Virus record (IMG/VR): IMGVR_UViG_2541047854_000008
Source of the DNA: a virus
Lineage: Duplodnaviria > Heunggongvirae > Uroviricota > Caudoviricetes
Direction: 5' to 3' (one strand)
DNA: 13,548 bases
In this document: positions 2,441 through 13,548 of the stretch, piece by piece
Layout of the letters: each line of letters starts with the position of its first letter
How positions within the stretch are numbered: position 1 is the first letter of the stretch
Program-made: the position numbers and the translations under genes
The notes under the pieces: generated by a model
Seen by the model: only the letters and a program-made list of their open reading frames with translations
The model's database searches: none
Told to the model about the DNA's origin: nothing

Positions 2441-2902
2441 CTATCTGCACTGCTCATTAATATACTTCTGGGTTCCTTCCAGTTGTTTTTGCATAGTGAT
2501 CAGCCTCTCTCTGAGGGTGAAATAATCCCGTTCAGCGGTGTCTGCCAGTCGGGGGGAGGCTGCATTATCCACGCCGGAGGCGGTGGTGGCTTCACGCACT
2601 GACTGACAGACTGCTTTGATGTGCAACCGACGACGACCAGCGGCAACATCATCACGCAGAGCATCATTTTCAGCTTTCGCATTAGCTAACTCCTTCGTGT
2701 ATTTTTCATCCAGTGCAGCAACATCACGCTGGCGCATCTGCATGTCAGTAATTGCCGCGTTCGCCAGCTTCAGTTCTCTGGCATTTTTGTCGCGCTGGGC
2801 TTTGTAGGTAATGGCGTTATCACGGTAATGATTAACAGCCCATGACAGGCAGACGATGATGCAGATAACCAGAGCGGAGATAATCGCGGTTACTCTGTTC
2901 AT
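2441..2902 (-). CDS. rzpD: Rz inner-membrane spanin (i-spanin), 153 aa
   Basis: The translation from ATG 2900-2902 ([64 protein letters not shown]...) is near-identical to lambda Rz. The ATG overlaps the rrrD TGA (ATGA). The track's GTG start at 2914 is judged to be an upstream extension. Confidence 0.9.
2500..2682 (-). CDS. rzoD: Rz1 outer-membrane lipoprotein spanin (o-spanin), 60 aa, embedded in Rz in the +1 frame
   Basis: The translation [60 protein letters not shown] has a lipobox (VVGC) and proline-rich stretch and is near-identical to lambda Rz1. It lies wholly inside the Rz ORF. Confidence 0.85.
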
Positions 2903-3396
2903 TGCTGACCCCACAAACAGATTTCACGCTCAATCTCACGACGAGTCATGAGACCTTTCCATTGCTTACCGCCAGCATATGTCCAGCGACGTAGCTGATC
3001 ACATGCGCCTTTGATATCGCCCTGGTTTATTTTGCGAAGAAGCGTCGATGTTCTGAAATTGCCAGCGCCCACGTTGTAAACGAACGAGTAAAGAGCGCCG
3101 CGCGTTGTTTCCGGTATATCAACTTTTATGTACGGGTTAATTTGTCTGGCGACCGTGGCAAGGTCTTTATTCAGGAGGGCTTTGCATTCTGCTTTGGTAT
3201 ACGTTTTACCGAGCATGATGTCTTTTCCTGTATGCCCGTGACATACAGTCCATACACCAACAATATCTTTGTATGGTATGTAGCTGACACCTTCCAGACC
3301 ATCGTTACCACTTGGGCCAGTGATTAACACTGATGCTATAGCAATTGCTCCGCCACCAATAGCAGCAGCAACGGCTTTTCGTAATGATGGAGGCAT
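2899..3396 (-). CDS. rrrD: Phage lysozyme (endolysin, T4-lysozyme-like GH24) with N-terminal signal-anchor-release (SAR) segment, 165 aa
   Basis: The translation [75 protein letters not shown]... has a Gly/Ala-rich weakly hydrophobic N-terminus (SAR) followed by a lysozyme catalytic region, matching K-12 RrrD and phage-21 R-type endolysin. RBS GAGGTG upstream; the ATG overlaps the essD stop. Confidence 0.9.
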
Positions 3397-4199: not shown

Positions 4200-5282
4200 A
4201 TGAAAAAATTAACAGTGGCAATTTCTGCTGTAGCTGCATCAGTACTGATGGCGATGTCTGCTCAGGCAGCTGAAATTTATAATAAAGACAGTAACAAGCT
4301 GGATCTGTACGGGAAAGTTAATGCCAAGCACTACTTTTCCTCTAACGATGCAGATGATGGTGATACTACTTATGCCCGTCTTGGCTTCAAAGGTGAAACC
4401 CAAATCAACGATCAACTGACTGGTTTCGGTCAGTGGGAATATGAATTCAAAGGCAACCGCGCTGAATCTCAAGGTTCCTCCAAAGACAAAACCCGTCTTG
4501 CATTTGCAGGCCTGAAATTCGGTGACTACGGCTCAATCGATTACGGCCGTAACTACGGTGTAGCATACGACATCGGTGCGTGGACTGACGTTCTGCCAGA
4601 ATTCGGTGGCGATACCTGGACCCAAACAGATGTGTTCATGACTGGTCGCACCACTGGTGTTGCAACCTATCGTAACAACGACTTCTTTGGTCTGGTCGAT
4701 GGCCTGAACTTTGCTGCTCAGTATCAGGGTAAAAATGACCGCACTGACGTAACTGAAGCCAATGGTGATGGTTTCGGTTTCTCCACTACTTATGAGTATG
4801 AAGGATTCGGCGTGGGTGCAACCTATGCTAAATCAGATCGCACTGACGGTCAGGTCGCCTATGGTAAGAGCAAATTCAATGCCTCCGGCAAAAATGCGGA
4901 AGTATGGGCTGCAGGCCTGAAATATGATGCGAACAATATCTATCTGGCTACCACATATTCTGAAACTCAGAATATGACCGTTTTTGGTAATAACCATATT
5001 GCAAACAAAGCACAAAACTTTGAAGCAGTAGCACAATATCAGTTTGACTTCGGTCTGCGACCATCTGTTGCTTACCTTCAGTCAAAAGGTAAAGACCTTG
5101 GTGTTCATGGTGACCGAGACTTAGTCAAGTATGTCGATGTCGGTGCTACTTACTACTTTAATAAAAACATGTCCACTTTTGTTGATTACAAAATCAACTT
5201 AATTGACGATAGTAAGTTTACCAAAACAGCTGGTATTGATACCGACGACATCGTCGCTGTAGGTCTGGTGTATCAGTTCTAA
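4200..5282 (+). CDS. nmpC: Outer-membrane general porin of the OmpC/OmpF/PhoE family (NmpC/OmpD-like), 360 aa, intact
   Basis: Signal peptide [23 protein letters not shown] followed by AEIYNKD..., and it ends in the porin C-terminal motif ...VGLVYQF. Full length with no interruption. Oriented opposite to the flanking late genes. Confidence 0.9.
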
Positions 5283-6081: not shown

Positions 6082-6440
6082 TCATCTCCCAGTTCAGTGA
6101 TGGTCAGTTCCAGCTTCCCACCTTTGGTAACAGGCATCTTCACAACGCGGTAATCAACGACCAGCTCATCATCCAGCCAGAAACCTGCTTTAGTGAGTGC
6201 GTCAAAAGCGGCTTTTTGCAGATTATCCAGGTCACGGCGACGGCGATCCGGCATGTGGCACTCAATGCGGATTTTCACAGGCATAGCCAGGCCGATATCC
6301 AGCATTGCGTTTTTAATGATTCGGGCGACGTTATCGCGGTATGCCTGCCCCTCTGCGCTGACGTGCGTGCGCCCGCGATTATGGCGGTAATAGCGATTAT
6401 TGCTCGGAGGCCAGGGTAATGTGATGCTGTAGGTATTCAC
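6078..6440 (-). CDS. rusA: Holliday-junction resolvase RusA (crossover junction endodeoxyribonuclease), 120 aa
   Basis: The translation [91 protein letters not shown]... is recognisably RusA. Its start overlaps the ybcO stop. Confidence 0.95.
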
Positions 6441-6727
6441 GCCTTAATAACCCCCTCTTTCAGCCAGATAACCTGTGTTCTCGCCATACCTTCCAGCGCG
6501 CATTCTTTTGCATATGCAGCATCGACAAAATGTGTGCGGCGGTCGATTTCGTCGTGGCAGGCAGAACATGCAATGGTGGCAATCAGGTCTGGCGGTTTGG
6601 TACCGGTGCCGCACAATCCAGTCAGCCGGATATGTGCCAGTACAGACGTTTCAGGGTTGCCATTACATACGCCAGGGATTCTTACCTGGCATTCCCGACC
6701 ACGCGCTGCTTTTCTCAAATCAGCCAT
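6437..6727 (-). CDS. ybcO: DUF1364-family nin-region protein (YbcO-like), 96 aa, cysteine-rich putative nuclease/zinc-binding protein
   Basis: ATG at 6725-6727 preceded by GGAGG. The translation [66 protein letters not shown]... matches K-12 YbcO as recalled. The track's TTG at 6766 is an extension. Confidence 0.85.
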
Positions 6728-7443: not shown

Positions 7444-7465
7444 AAACGTCCCCGTTTAGCGCAGA

Positions 7466-7496
7466 AGTCACCGGAGGAGTTCAAACTCCGGTGACT
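7466..7496 (-). terminator. Perfect 11-bp stem-loop (AGTCACCGGAG - 9-nt loop - CTCCGGTGACT) downstream of the HNH-motif gene; possible terminator or regulatory hairpin
   Basis: Inverted repeat read directly from the sequence. It lies between the stop of the 260-aa gene (7538) and the nin-gene block. There is no clear U-tract on the - strand and TTAATTAT follows on the + strand, so terminator function is uncertain. Confidence 0.3.
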
Positions 7497-7537
7497 TAAT
7501 TATGGCAAGTTGATTGTTGAAAATCAATTTAGTGGAT

Positions 7538-8320
7538 TTAGGCGCAATACAAAGGATCATTAGCAGCTCTAATACCGCCCTGAATCGCAAGCCCTGTATG
7601 GCAATTTGACATTGAGCATGATTGCCATCTGTGCAAGGGACCTCCATTAATCGAAACTTCCAGCAGATCTTTATCTCCTTTCATCCTGACCCCTTCATAC
7701 AACATATCAAGACGCTCAACAATCAATCCTGTTGGAGGTTCCATTTTTAGAACGAGGGCAAACTCTCCTGGCCCACGTCGTATTGTTATACGCGGGCCGG
7801 TACACTCCACATCCCAATTGTCTGATTTAGCTTTCCATTCATTTTCATCTATCAGTAAAGTCTCCTTACCAATAGAATTACAGAAAATTCCTGATAAAAG
7901 CATCGGTCCATGTGGTATGGGTGAAGGTTTCACAGAAAGAATGGGTTGTTCGTTGACTACAATCAAATTTTGACAGTTATGAAACGTCACTCCTGCAAAT
8001 TTTACTGTTATAGGCTCATTATGAAAATCAAACATTTCATTTGCAAAACCAGCCTGTAAGCACTTGGGATTTCTGTCAGCTATTTCCACTGTCTGTGCTG
8101 AAAGTCTACCACGAGCTCTTTTTTGATTGCATTGGGAGCAAAGAAGTGTCATTCCATTCGGATCATGTATTTTGGCATCAACGAAGTCAGGTTTAAAATG
8201 CTCATAATCATAAAATCCAAATCCACAAATTACACAGCCAAAGCCGCACCTTTGCCTTATCTGACGTTTTATTGTCTCAGGTATTCTTCTTGAGAGCCCG
8301 TGTTTATTAATATTGTCCAT
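7538..8320 (-). CDS. Hypothetical 260-aa protein with an N-terminal zinc-finger HNH (beta-beta-alpha-Me) nuclease motif and an uncharacterised ~190-aa C-terminal domain
   Basis: ATG at 8318-8320 with an in-frame stop 5 codons upstream and only a weak SD. Residues 25-65 read RCGFGCVICGFGFYDYEHFKPDFVDAKIHDPNGMTLLCSQCNQ, i.e. C-x3-C-x2-C ... EH ... N ... C-x2-C-N, the spacing typical of HNH nucleases. The C-terminal region is not recognised. The gene is AT-rich relative to the lambda-like core. Confidence 0.6.
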   Translation of the reverse strand: MDNINKHGLSRRIPETIKRQIRQRCGFGCVICGFGFYDYEHFKPDFVDAKIHDPNGMTLLCSQCNQKRARGRLSAQTVEIADRNPKCLQAGFANEMFDFHNEPITVKFAGVTFHNCQNLIVVNEQPILSVKPSPIPHGPMLLSGIFCNSIGKETLLIDENEWKAKSDNWDVECTGPRITIRRGPGEFALVLKMEPPTGLIVERLDMLYEGVRMKGDKDLLEVSINGGPLHRWQSCSMSNCHTGLAIQGGIRAANDPLYCA

Positions 8321-8450
8321 ATGGTTAGTACGCTATAAGTTTGTTTCTATAATTTTACCACAATAGATAAGTTTGTATCAGAAATCGCTATATGGAGTGA
8401 GCGGAATATTTATATTATTCATGCAATTGCTCTCCCGTACGCAGCCCGCA

Positions 8451-8476
8451 CTTCCGTCATCGCAGAATGACGGAAG
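8451..8476 (-). promoter_or_regulatory. Perfect 10-bp inverted repeat (CTTCCGTCAT-cgcaga-ATGACGGAAG) in the intergenic region between the 107-aa and 260-aa genes; candidate operator or attenuator hairpin
   Basis: Read directly from the sequence. It lies 19 nt past the stop of the 107-aa ORF and upstream of an AT-rich stretch that contains an extended -10-like TGGTAAAAT (- strand, about 8350-8360). No U-tract follows on either strand. Confidence 0.3.
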
Positions 8477-8494
8477 CCTTACTAACTAGCGCCT

Positions 8495-8818
8495 TTATTG
8501 AAACAGATTCTGAGGTAAATGCGGCAATACTTGACTCCACTTATCATCCTGCCACGGCTGAAGTTTTACATGTGCCGTTTCTCGGGCGAGGATTGCTCGC
8601 GCTCTGTTGAGTCTCTGGGGATATTCTTGCTCGATGGAAGTGAAGTGACCAGCCTCACCATGCTCCGCATCCTGAAGAAGATGAGTAACGTTCTGGTAGG
8701 CAATTAACATCACATTCCCTGCTCGCCATAACCAGGCGAGTGTGCAAAGTTCGTTATCAGTGAATTGTTTTGTGATTGGGAATTGTTGAACTGCTAGAAC
8801 GGGAACGCCAGCATCCAT
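8495..8818 (-). CDS. Hypothetical protein, 107 aa, no recognised family; upstream partner of the HNH-motif gene
   Basis: ATG at 8816-8818 with an in-frame TAG 3 codons upstream and AGGGA 8 nt upstream. Translation MDAGVPVLAVQQFPITKQFTDNELCTLAWLWRAGNVMLIAYQNVTHLLQDAEHGEAGHFTSIEQEYPQRLNRARAILARETAHVKLQPWQDDKWSQVLPHLPQNLFQ. Coding status rests on ORF length and position only. Confidence 0.45.
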   Translation of the reverse strand: MDAGVPVLAVQQFPITKQFTDNELCTLAWLWRAGNVMLIAYQNVTHLLQDAEHGEAGHFTSIEQEYPQRLNRARAILARETAHVKLQPWQDDKWSQVLPHLPQNLFQ

Positions 8819-8929
8819 TGGCAGTCCCTATAGTAAAACCATAGCTCAGGACGCTTCGTTCAGGATAGATACTTTTATTGTACTTACCTAACTTTCTTAC
8901 TATAGCACGGTTGGAAAAGTGATTATTAC

Positions 8930-11111: not shown

Positions 11112-11414
11112 TCATTGTGTACCCATTGATGTTCTTTTATATACCCTCAATACGCGTTTCATCGCGGCACTCTGGCGACACTCCTTAAAAATCAGATTCG
11201 TGCTCACCTTTCCTTCCCGTTCTTCTCTGGTAGCGAACCGGTAATACACCGTTCGCCAGACCTTACCATCAACGACCAGGATTCCTGCCCGCGCCATTTT
11301 AGCCGCAGCCTGATTTATGCTGGTTACGGTTGCGCCTGTTACCGCGGCAACGTCCTGTGCACAGAAGCTCTTATGCGTCCCCAGGTAATGAATAATTGCC
11401 TCTTTGCCCGTCAT
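11112..11414 (-). CDS. renD: Ren protein homolog (lambda Ren, protects against Rex exclusion), 100 aa
   Basis: The translation MTGKEAIIHYLGTHKSFCAQDVAAVTGATVTSINQAAAKMARAGILVVDGKVWRTVYYRFATREEREGKVSTNLIFKECRQSAAMKRVL... is recognisably lambda Ren. The ATG overlaps the P stop (ATGA), as in lambda. Confidence 0.85.
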   Translation of the reverse strand: MTGKEAIIHYLGTHKSFCAQDVAAVTGATVTSINQAAAKMARAGILVVDGKVWRTVYYRFATREEREGKVSTNLIFKECRQSAAMKRVLRVYKRTSMGTQ

Positions 11415-12112
11415 ACACTTGCTCCTTTCAGTCCGAACTTAGCTTTAATTTCTGCGATCTTCGCCAGAGCCTGTGCACGATTTAGAGGTCTACCGCCCAT
11501 AACAGGAAGTTGTTTTACTGGTTCAGGTATCGTCTCACCACGGTTAATTCGCGCTGTCATACAGGTCAGTTCATCGGCAGCCTTGCGCCGTAATTCCGCG
11601 TCAGTCAGCGCATTGGCCCGCATGTTCTGGTACAAGTTGGTAACCAACCAGTAATGCGCGTTCGATTTCCACGGATAAGACTCTGCATCCGGATACAGGC
11701 CACGCTTCCGGCAATACTCGTAAACCATATCAACCAGCTCGCTGACGTTTGGCAGCCCGGCGTTAACAGATGCTTCTTCCCGGCACCAGGCGACAAACTG
11801 CCCGGGTGATGGCAGGAATGGTCGATTCTGCCGACGGGCTACGCGCATTCCAGCGTTAACCTGTTCCATTGTGGTGATCCCGTTTTCCCGGAAAGCCAGA
11901 ACCCACTGGCGGCGGATTTCGTTCAGTTCATTCTGGTCACGGTTAGCCAGGCTCGCCGGGAAAGTTGCCAGTAACTGGCTGAACACACCGTTGATGATCT
12001 GCGCTACCTGCTGTACCTGTGGCTTTTCGTCGTACTGTTCCGGCATGTTGTTGGCGATCCGGCGCATCTGCTCACAGTCAAAGTTAACCATCTGTGCGGC
12101 GATGTTTTTCAT
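11411..12112 (-). CDS. P: Replication protein P (DnaB helicase loader) homolog, 233 aa, apparently full length
   Basis: The translation MKNIAAQMVNFDCEQMRRIANNMPEQYDEKPQVQQVAQIINGVFSQLLATFPASLANRDQNELNEIRRQWVLAFRENGITTMEQVNAGMRVARRQNRPFLPSPGQFVAWCREEASV... is near-identical to lambda P as recalled. The start ATG overlaps the stop of the upstream O-frame remnant (ATGA), as in lambda. Confidence 0.9.
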   Translation of the reverse strand: MKNIAAQMVNFDCEQMRRIANNMPEQYDEKPQVQQVAQIINGVFSQLLATFPASLANRDQNELNEIRRQWVLAFRENGITTMEQVNAGMRVARRQNRPFLPSPGQFVAWCREEASVNAGLPNVSELVDMVYEYCRKRGLYPDAESYPWKSNAHYWLVTNLYQNMRANALTDAELRRKAADELTCMTARINRGETIPEPVKQLPVMGGRPLNRAQALAKIAEIKAKFGLKGASV

Positions 12113-12288
12113 AGCTCCACCCCGTAAATCCAGTCAGTGTTCGTCAGGTCGAGTTTTGGTTTGCCGGCTATCACGCCAGCCTGTTGCTTGTTTCGGTTGA
12201 TTTCGAGCTGGGTCCACTTGTCGCGGAGTTTGGCCGGACTTAGCACGTTACAGGCAACACGTAAAGATCCAACCAAGCCAAAATCTCC
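12109..12288 (-). pseudogene. O: 3'-terminal remnant of replication initiator gene O (only the last several tens of codons); no start codon, so the ori-containing part of O is absent
   Basis: The - strand frame ending in TGA at 12109-12111 encodes ...AGVIAGKPKLDLTNTDWIYGVEL, which matches my recollection of the lambda O C-terminus, and has the lambda-like O/P ATGA overlap. The frame is closed by an in-frame stop at 12289-12291 and there is no N-terminal part. The exact junction with int-upstream sequence is not determined. Confidence 0.45.
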
Positions 12289-12384
12289 TTACCTCACAAC
12301 ACGGCAAGCCTGCATTGCGGCGCTTCAGTCTCCGCTGCATACTGTCCAGGTGAGCGCGGGTGATGGCATAACAGAGGAAAGAAA

Positions 12385-13548
12385 ATGTCACTCTTCCGCA
12401 GAAATGAAATATGGTATGCCTCGTATTCGCTCCCGGGCGGGAAACGAATTAAGGAATCTCTTGGCACAAAGGACAAGCGGCAAGCTCAGGAGTTGCACGA
12501 CAAGCGAAAAGCAGAACTCTGGCGAGTAGAAAAGCTAGGGGATTTACCTGATGTCACTTTTGAAGAGGCCTGCCTAAGATGGCTTGAGGAAAAAGCTGAT
12601 AAAAAATCTCTCGATTCAGATAAAAGCCGGATTGAGTTCTGGCTTGAACATTTTGAGGGTATAAGGCTTAAAGATATCTCGGAGGCAAAGATTTACTCTG
12701 CTGTAAGCAGAATGCATAACAGAAAGACGAAAGAAATATGGAAACAGAAAGTTCAGGCCGCCATCAGGAAAGGTAAAGAACCGCCTGTTTATGAACCAAA
12801 GCCAGTATCAACTCAGACAAAGGCAAAGCATCTTGCCATGATAAAGGCCATTCTCCGTGCTGCAGAACGCGACTGGAAGTGGCTGGAAAAAGCGCCTGTC
12901 ATCAAGATACCAGCGGTCAGAAACAAGCGAGTCAGATGGCTGGAAAAGGAGGAAGCAAAACGCCTTATTGATGAGTGCCCCGAACCACTGAAATCTGTCG
13001 TCAAGTTTGCGCTGGCAACTGGTCTGAGAAAGTCGAACATCATAAATCTGGAATGGCAACAAATCGACATGCAGCGACGAGTTGCCTGGGTGAATCCAGA
13101 AGAGAGCAAATCAAACCGCGCCATTGGTGTGGCGCTGAACGATACCGCCTGTAAAGTGTTGCGTGATCAAATAGGCAAGCATCACAAATGGGTGTTTGTA
13201 CATACCAAGGCGGCTAAGCGAGCAGATGGAACATCAACGCCTGCGGTCAGGAAGATGCGCATCGACAGCAAGACATCATGGCTATCAGCTTGTCGTCGTG
13301 CAGGAATTGAAGATTTCCGTTTCCATGACCTCAGACACACCTGGGCAAGCTGGCTGATTCAGTCAGGCGTCCCATTATCAGTGCTTCAGGAAATGGGCGG
13401 ATGGGAGTCCATAGAAATGGTTCGTAGGTATGCTCACCTTGCGCCTAATCATTTGACAGAGCATGCGAGGAAAATAGACGACATTTTTGGTGATAATGTC
13501 CCAAATATGTCCCACTCTGGAATTATGGAGGATATAAAGAAGGCGTAA
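12385..13548 (+). CDS. intD: Tyrosine site-specific integrase (phage integrase family), 387 aa
   Basis: ATG at 12385 preceded by GAGGAAAG. The C-terminal catalytic region has the R...HxxR...Y signature ([15 protein letters not shown]...VRRYAHL). Length and sequence match K-12 IntD as recalled. The stop codon is the last 3 nt of the window, so the attachment site or tRNA is outside the window. Confidence 0.9.

Follow-up and report, generated by a model that had tools for sequence, protein, structure and literature searches.

WP_001301145, a 260-residue protein of Escherichia coli prophages, joins a known nuclease module, an HNH domain, to an undescribed partner domain made entirely of β-strands. 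Its gene forms a self-contained accessory unit (a 'moron') that temperate lambdoid phages carry in their nin region. Our analysis favours as its most likely role, with a probability of roughly 45%, that of a single-protein defence or superinfection-exclusion nuclease in which the β-domain would sense or gate. We studied the gene in a stretch of phage DNA of 13,548 nucleotides, hereafter the window, where the open reading frame at 7538-8320 reported in a first-pass annotation proved to be real, lying on the minus strand and starting with ATG. The features of the gene and its surroundings are as follows (window coordinates):

7538..8320, minus strand: coding sequence of the HNH plus β-domain protein, 260 aa, ATG start, WP_001301145, phrog_6544 (from the ORF list)
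8072..8320, minus strand: N-terminal HNH/His-Me finger domain, residues 1-83, pI 9.2 in this protein
8126..8248, minus strand: catalytic and zinc motif core with C25, C29-x2-C32, E40-H41, H52, C61-x2-C64 and N65 (from sequence and conservation)
7571..8071, minus strand: C-terminal all-β domain, residues 84-250, pI 5.7 in this protein
7541..7570, minus strand: C-terminal tail, residues 251-260, with the subfamily motif A-A-N-D-P-x-Y (from alignment and pLDDT)
8352..8381, minus strand: promoter-like site, sigma-70-like, with a TG-extended -10, CTGATA-18-TAAAAT (from a consensus scan)
8450..8477, minus strand: 12-bp hairpin between the 107-aa ORF and the promoter-like site (-26.6 kcal/mol, z -3.6)
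7465..7497, minus strand: 12-bp hairpin about 40 nt 3' of the stop codon, without a U-tract (-22 kcal/mol, z -5.9)
7528..8920: cassette of 1.39 kb in place of ybcL-ybcM of the K-12 prophage DLP12 (from blastn against K-12, slot alleles and composition)
8495..8818, minus strand: 107-aa ORF, C-terminal remnant of an antirepressor (Pfam P22_AR_C, E 1.5e-13; PHROG Ant families)

RefSeq labels the protein 'hypothetical protein', and the PHROG family that it matches (phrog_6544, E 3e-141) is listed as of 'unknown function'; certain UniRef entries of the family are named 'HNH endonuclease'. Homologues of comparable length number 307. Queried as a whole, the protein gave no match in NCBIfam and nothing meaningful among PDB sequences, and the known and candidate defence families of PADLOC yielded no significant match, the sole one being PtuB (E 0.04, 11.8 bits). 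No publication on the family turned up in literature searches by accession, PHROG number or keyword. Its motif strings are absent from the accessible part of the DefensePredictor supplements, which does list a 301-aa E. coli candidate, 'HNH1', that gave no defence; a domain-centric screen (NAR 2026) does not mention HNH.

Two domains of unequal familiarity

The N-terminal domain is established as a member of the HNH/His-Me finger superfamily (Pfam PF01844 and relatives) on the basis of its fold and catalytic residues. A profile-HMM search, suggested as a check in the first-pass annotation, did match Pfam HNH to the window protein, but at 14.4 bits, below the gathering cutoff of 21.4; matches of 24 of 40 homologues were also sub-threshold. 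A relative of equal architecture (P0169) passes the cutoff with 25.0 bits, and two PHROG HNH families match with E 6e-4 and 3e-3. When a profile of the N-terminal 92 residues was compared to PDB sequences, HNH domains ranked first (IscB, E 0.009; ZRANB3, 0.058; Cap5, 0.08), and in the resulting alignments C61-x2-C64-N65 falls on the 'LCxxCH' motif. The AlphaFold model, computed from 40 sequences (pLDDT 91.4, pTM 0.84), contains the ββα-metal core that had been anticipated, with strands at residues 38-41 and 57-60 and a helix at 62-69. The best match of a structural search against the PDB was the HNH effector domain of Cap5.

All residues of the motif first read from the sequence (C25-x3-C29-x2-C32, E40-H41, H52, N55 and C61-x2-C64-N65) are present at nt 8126-8248. 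Across 40 homologues with 50-79% identity there is no variation at C25, C29, C32, E40, H41, H52, C61 or N65, and conservation of C64 is at least 90%; C29, H41, H52 and C61 are still invariant in 42 distant relatives (33-57% identity). A motif conserved in both sets is not a chance pattern. [quoted passage not shown] H41 is the catalytic histidine at the end of strand 1 and aligns with the catalytic histidines of the IscB and ZRANB3 HNH domains.

N55, initially taken for an HNH residue, is variable even in close homologues (N/A/D/K/E). Profile alignments to solved HNH domains place the middle asparagine of the motif at G56 instead, and as this position varies across the family, the family lacks the middle structural asparagine, which is a peculiarity of it. 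The suspected replacement of the usual final histidine by asparagine was confirmed and concerns N65. Among 88 representatives this last metal-ligand position is occupied by H (77), N (3), Q (5), E (2) or A (1), with asparagine found throughout the enterobacterial and β-proteobacterial subfamily. H52 (window 8165-8167) is invariant superfamily-wide, whereas ordinary HNH proteins have no conserved residue in that loop; its role may be that of an additional metal ligand or of a structural replacement.

The remaining ~190 residues, for which no relative had been recognised, indeed have no detectable one in Pfam or among solved structures. Residues 84-250 are confidently predicted to form about 17 β-strands, and no internal repeats were detected in this domain. 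In the 42 distant relatives P85, N160 and D170 are invariant and W169 is nearly so, a conservation pattern that suggests one specific functional site. The reading of the protein as an HNH domain followed by an unmatched C-terminal domain is confirmed except for two of its details, the role of N55 and a Shine-Dalgarno sequence (see next section); the interpretation attached to it is supported in part.

A search with a profile of the β-domain in a library of 1.84 billion proteins retrieved 1,529 representative clusters (50% identity), 790 of them with E below 1e-10. In the best 150 of these 1,529 representatives the β-domain usually starts around residue 83-87, and none of the 150 carries an alternative N-terminal domain: a strict regular expression for the HNH motif fits 88, and the remaining 62 either are fragments truncated at the N-terminus or are full-length and have the family's N-terminal segment with small variations of the motif. 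HNH and β-domain are an obligate pair. Some distant relatives (P0146, P0174, P0224, P0139, P0177, P0148) have further C-terminal extensions, namely TPR repeats, a SEC-C motif, a CxxCxxCC zinc domain or a long helical region, all following the β-domain; one extension region of about 400 residues is without a Pfam match. The extensions could be variable sensor or adaptor modules. At the C-terminus of the window protein, the A-A-N-D-P-x-Y motif of the tail is kept in the close subfamily, but several members are without it, and model confidence falls from a mean pLDDT of 87 (residues 241-250) to 49 (residues 251-260), with values below 50 at residues 257-260. This tail may be a short docking motif.

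The two domains differ in charge and rate of evolution. Family-wide, the median pI of the HNH domain is basic (8.9) and that of the β-domain acidic (5.4). Pairwise identity is 72% for the HNH domain vs 48% for the β-domain among close homologues, and 48% vs 29% among distant ones, and dN of the β-domain is 1.3-2.7 times that of the HNH domain. With dN at 0.08-0.39 and dS saturated, both domains are under purifying selection, a statement to which the saturation allows no numerical dN/dS to be attached. A basic, conserved N-terminal domain combined with an acidic, faster-evolving C-terminal one fits an effector plus a sensor or regulator.

Exchangeable cargo of a prophage slot

The window represents a defective lambdoid prophage of the DLP12 type from E. 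coli and is 100% identical to sequence in strain D2 and others. From low to high coordinates it encodes Nu1, Bor, Rz/Rz1, the lysozyme RrrD, the holin EssD, a porin, QuuD, YlcG, RusA, YbcO, NinE and YbcN, then the 260-aa HNH protein, the 107-aa antirepressor remnant, the serine recombinase YbcK, EmrE, Ren, replication protein P and the integrase. Rfam and tRNA scans of the window gave no matches. The OmpC/NmpC-like porin gene (4200-5282, plus strand, 360 aa) is intact here, and its K-12 counterpart nmpC is split by IS5; an ORF for an Rz1-like lipoprotein (2500-2682, minus strand) is nested in another frame of Rz (2441-2914, minus strand), the usual arrangement of spanins. YbcO (DUF1364; 6437-6727, minus strand) was classed as a His-Me finger protein in a survey of the superfamily (PMC5714182), so that two members of the superfamily, with about 1 kb between them, are encoded in the window.

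Replication protein P has a full-length match in Pfam, and about 270 bp separate its gene from that of the integrase (window 11411-13548); genes for the repressor, O and cII are all absent from the ORFs and Pfam matches of the window, which identifies this prophage copy as a deletion remnant. It could not drive the HNH gene from pR. Fuller prophages of other strains retain repressor, O and P and carry the same HNH protein in the same DLP12-type backbone, and the identical 260-aa protein is always found within such a backbone.

In comparison to K-12 (L092, 4439-6284), window positions 7527/7528 and 8920/8921 mark the breaks in homology. The cassette between these breakpoints contains the antirepressor remnant and the HNH gene, and GC content is about 40% in the region of the HNH gene vs 49-54% in the adjoining nin genes. 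When complete E. coli genomes are compared, at least four alternative contents are seen in the slot between ybcK and ylcH/ybcN: the HNH cassette, ybcL-ybcM, an α/β hydrolase, or next to nothing (O157:H7). This DLP12 slot is a cargo-exchange site. The full cassette is present in 80 of 5,426 complete E. coli genomes; O104:H4 2011C-3493 is one strain with the cassette. The 107-aa ORF and the HNH gene share a cassette only in E. coli; we considered that they might form a two-gene module and rejected this, as the upstream ORF of the same size in the Klebsiella phage is unrelated and Enterobacter loci are without one.

Upstream of the ATG we see no Shine-Dalgarno sequence, contrary to the weak one that had been noted. 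The extended -10-like element reported alongside it is present, but the scan finds 6 promoter-like sites in this region where 4.3 are expected from shuffled sequence; with a count so close to expectation, the promoter-like site alone proves nothing. The Enterobacter and Klebsiella copies show partial conservation of the region upstream of the gene, and the downstream hairpin at 7465..7497 sits in backbone common to K-12, just outside the breakpoint at 7527. Together, the promoter-like site, the flanking hairpins and the missing Shine-Dalgarno sequence make up a predicted classic 'moron' layout.

Beyond the enterobacteria, homologues have 50-60% identity in Burkholderiales, Pseudomonas and Vibrio and about 40% in cyanobacteria, Chloroflexi, Bacillota and a Methanothrix MAG. 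Among deposited phage genomes we found the family in 1 of 50,697 records, a temperate Klebsiella phage, and plasmid records of it are few (7). A set of 56 non-redundant viral contigs places the gene on the early-right strand in the nin region, downstream of a CI-like repressor in 34 loci and of replication protein O in 29, and upstream of Q in 12 and of lysozyme in 15; its distance upstream of Q and the lysis genes is 2-4 kb. In Pseudomonas prophages it is oriented against its neighbours.

We also compared 80 genome loci from different species of many phyla, plus the Methanothrix MAG. The immediate neighbours in the 80 loci are mostly housekeeping genes, most of the loci have no phage module nearby, and no partner gene is conserved among them, the largest neighbour cluster comprising 6 loci at scattered positions. 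PADLOC matches are no commoner among nearest neighbours (33 families) than 6.5-10 kb away (97); this comparison, crude and with no genome-wide baseline, gave no signal of a defence island. In about 8 of the 56 viral loci (including L122, L145, L147, L148, L153, L154 and L156), a large C5 cytosine DNA methylase of 650-774 aa adjoins the HNH gene at 0.3-1.4 kb; these loci belong to two lineages and the methylase occurs on either strand. Homologues of this methylase were found neither in the window nor within 6 kb of the gene in any of the 80 genome loci, which excludes an obligate restriction-modification pairing. Genes of a toxin or defence type adjoin the family in a few loci: HicAB does so in Undibacterium, and a gene for a RES-domain protein in Enterobacter. 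In Alcaligenes (L010, 8001-11338; L011, 2324-5661), downstream of a family member lie a 67-aa ORF, a 245-aa protein and a DUF4238 protein, of which the 245-aa protein has a C-terminal HNH motif and an architecture unlike that of the family; located between prophage tail and lysis genes, the group looks like a small defence islet.

Relation to known HNH systems

HNH domains are the cutting modules of Cas9, of the CBASS effector Cap5, of Septu and Zorya, and of many restriction enzymes, systems that differ in how the nuclease is aimed or switched on. In Cap5 the nuclease is activated through the protein's own C-terminal domain. We compared the 260-aa protein to Cap5, type IV enzymes, type II restriction-modification enzymes, PtuB, packaging HNH proteins and homing endonucleases, and each of these assignments fails on at least one defining feature. 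Cap5 (HNH-SAVED; PDB 7rwk, 7rwm, 8fm1) shares the HNH effector domain, which is the best structural match. Yet Cap5 has a SAVED domain, whereas the protein studied here is without one and its all-β C-terminal domain matches nothing; and the Cap5 operon includes a CD-NTase, whereas none stands beside the HNH-β gene, leaving no obvious source of a nucleotide signal.

The type II restriction enzymes with an HNH domain (KpnI, Hpy99I) have a tightly linked methyltransferase, while the HNH-β gene has no consistent one. Septu PtuB and the retron-associated HNH proteins (TIGR02646) need a partner ATPase or a retron, while the family has no conserved partner, and no PtuA ATPase neighbours the gene in the window or in the 80 genome loci. 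Packaging HNH proteins (HK97 gp74 type; GVE2 HNH, PDB 5h0o) are about 100-120 aa long and encoded beside the terminase, in contrast to 260 aa and the nin region here. An intact-looking lambdoid prophage with the identical cassette (L180) has a separate 116-aa Pfam-HNH gene (11987-12337) beside its terminase, so the packaging role is already filled by another gene. Within the superfamily, the T4 endonuclease VII/Hpy99I group has in common with our protein the four-cysteine zinc site, the carboxylate-histidine pair of strand 1 and the asparagine, rather than histidine, that serves as metal ligand in the helix (PMC5714182).

Proposed role and its alternatives

In the mechanism that we propose, H41 would be the general base, E40 and N65 would be metal ligands, and C29, C32, C61 and C64 would form a structural zinc site. 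The β-domain would hold the basic nuclease domain inactive, or would direct it, until an infecting phage gives a signal, whereupon the HNH domain would cut DNA. We infer nuclease activity, gating by the β-domain and an anti-phage role alike. As there is no methyltransferase, immunity protein or ATPase partner, control, or discrimination of self from non-self, would have to lie within the protein or come about through preference for a substrate that the host lacks. A gene that is encoded alone, mobile and optional, and that permanently ties an HNH domain with intact catalytic residues to a faster-evolving acidic domain, favours a single-protein defence or exclusion nuclease. Cap5 and other nucleases that combine an effector with a sensor are analogous to it in working mode only; the HNH-β protein is not a member of their groups. 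The context signal for a defence role is weak, and the E. coli slot, which also carries non-defence cargo (ybcL/ybcM, the hydrolase), speaks against such a role, as do the absence of a significant PADLOC match and the mostly housekeeping neighbours in the 80 genome loci. More tentatively, and with doubt prevailing, the family may amount to a very widespread and hitherto unrecognised single-protein immune system of many bacterial phyla and some archaea, with a new all-β sensor fold, in which a cue from the phage would release the HNH nuclease, spread by temperate phages as exclusion cargo.

McrA of prophage e14 illustrates how the nuclease could instead act by discriminating substrates in the manner of type IV restriction. 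The β-domain would then bind a DNA feature that the host lacks, such as a modified base, a free end or a replication intermediate, and the HNH domain would cut incoming DNA directly, with no trigger of abortive infection. We consider this unlikely. The HNH-β gene resembles type IV systems in being solitary, with no cognate methyltransferase in any of the 80 genome loci, but in EcoKMcrA, ScoMcrA, TagI and VcaM4I the order of domains is the reverse, and none of the type IV reader domains (McrA N-domain, SRA/PUA-like, SBD) is matched by the β-domain. PDB matches to 6ghc, 5zmm, 6ghs and 6yex cover only 72-79 residues of the HNH domain, and the β-domain alone finds none of these structures. Location raises a different alternative: since recombination nucleases (RusA, YbcO) abound in the nin region, a delayed-early nuclease serving the phage itself is natural to consider. 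It would act in recombination, replication restart or breakdown of host DNA, as do Rap/NinG, RusA, T4 endonuclease VII and P1 Ref, with the β-domain recognising a DNA structure or a host partner. This too is improbable, given that most of the 80 genome loci show the gene isolated among housekeeping genes with no phage module nearby, that it is optional within one prophage lineage, and that hardly any sequenced phage has it. The promoter-like site of its own and its opposed orientation in Pseudomonas prophages are likewise features of a moron and not of an operon member.

An N-terminal HNH domain followed by a second domain, as in enzymes of the I-HmuI type, together with a patchy distribution in which related prophages differ in presence and absence of the gene, would also be expected of a free-standing homing endonuclease, a selfish element that cuts alleles without the gene and in which the β-domain would recognise DNA. 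We regard this as very unlikely. Homing endonucleases of that type have NUMOD, IENR1 or HTH modules after the HNH domain, of which Pfam detects none in the 260-aa protein, whose C-terminal domain is moreover acidic. A single phage record in 50,697, and not a virulent one, is at odds with the abundance of homing genes in virulent phages; the E. coli cassette exchanges with unrelated content and is not a clean insertion; and many copies lie between bacterial housekeeping genes, with long-term purifying selection on both domains across phyla. Scarcely more credible is an addiction-type toxin that would be kept in check by its own C-terminal domain and would stabilise the element carrying it, or a mainly non-catalytic, DNA-binding HNH protein. 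HicAB and RES-domain toxin genes do adjoin some copies, the middle asparagine is missing, and Q, E or A replaces the last metal ligand in a few relatives; against this, the invariance of H41 and the occurrence of H or N as last ligand in 80 of 88 representatives argue for retained catalysis, and there is no conserved antitoxin gene.

The pairing of HNH and β-domain is conserved in about 1,500 sequence clusters on which we found no publication. If the gene serves phage recombination, it would add one more nuclease to the toolkit of the nin region. If, on the other hand, the β-domain is a sensor, it would represent a new recognition module for bacterial immunity and possibly provide a compact, self-contained nuclease that can be triggered; a 'hypothetical protein' common in prophages of E. 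coli, Klebsiella and Enterobacter would then also have a function.
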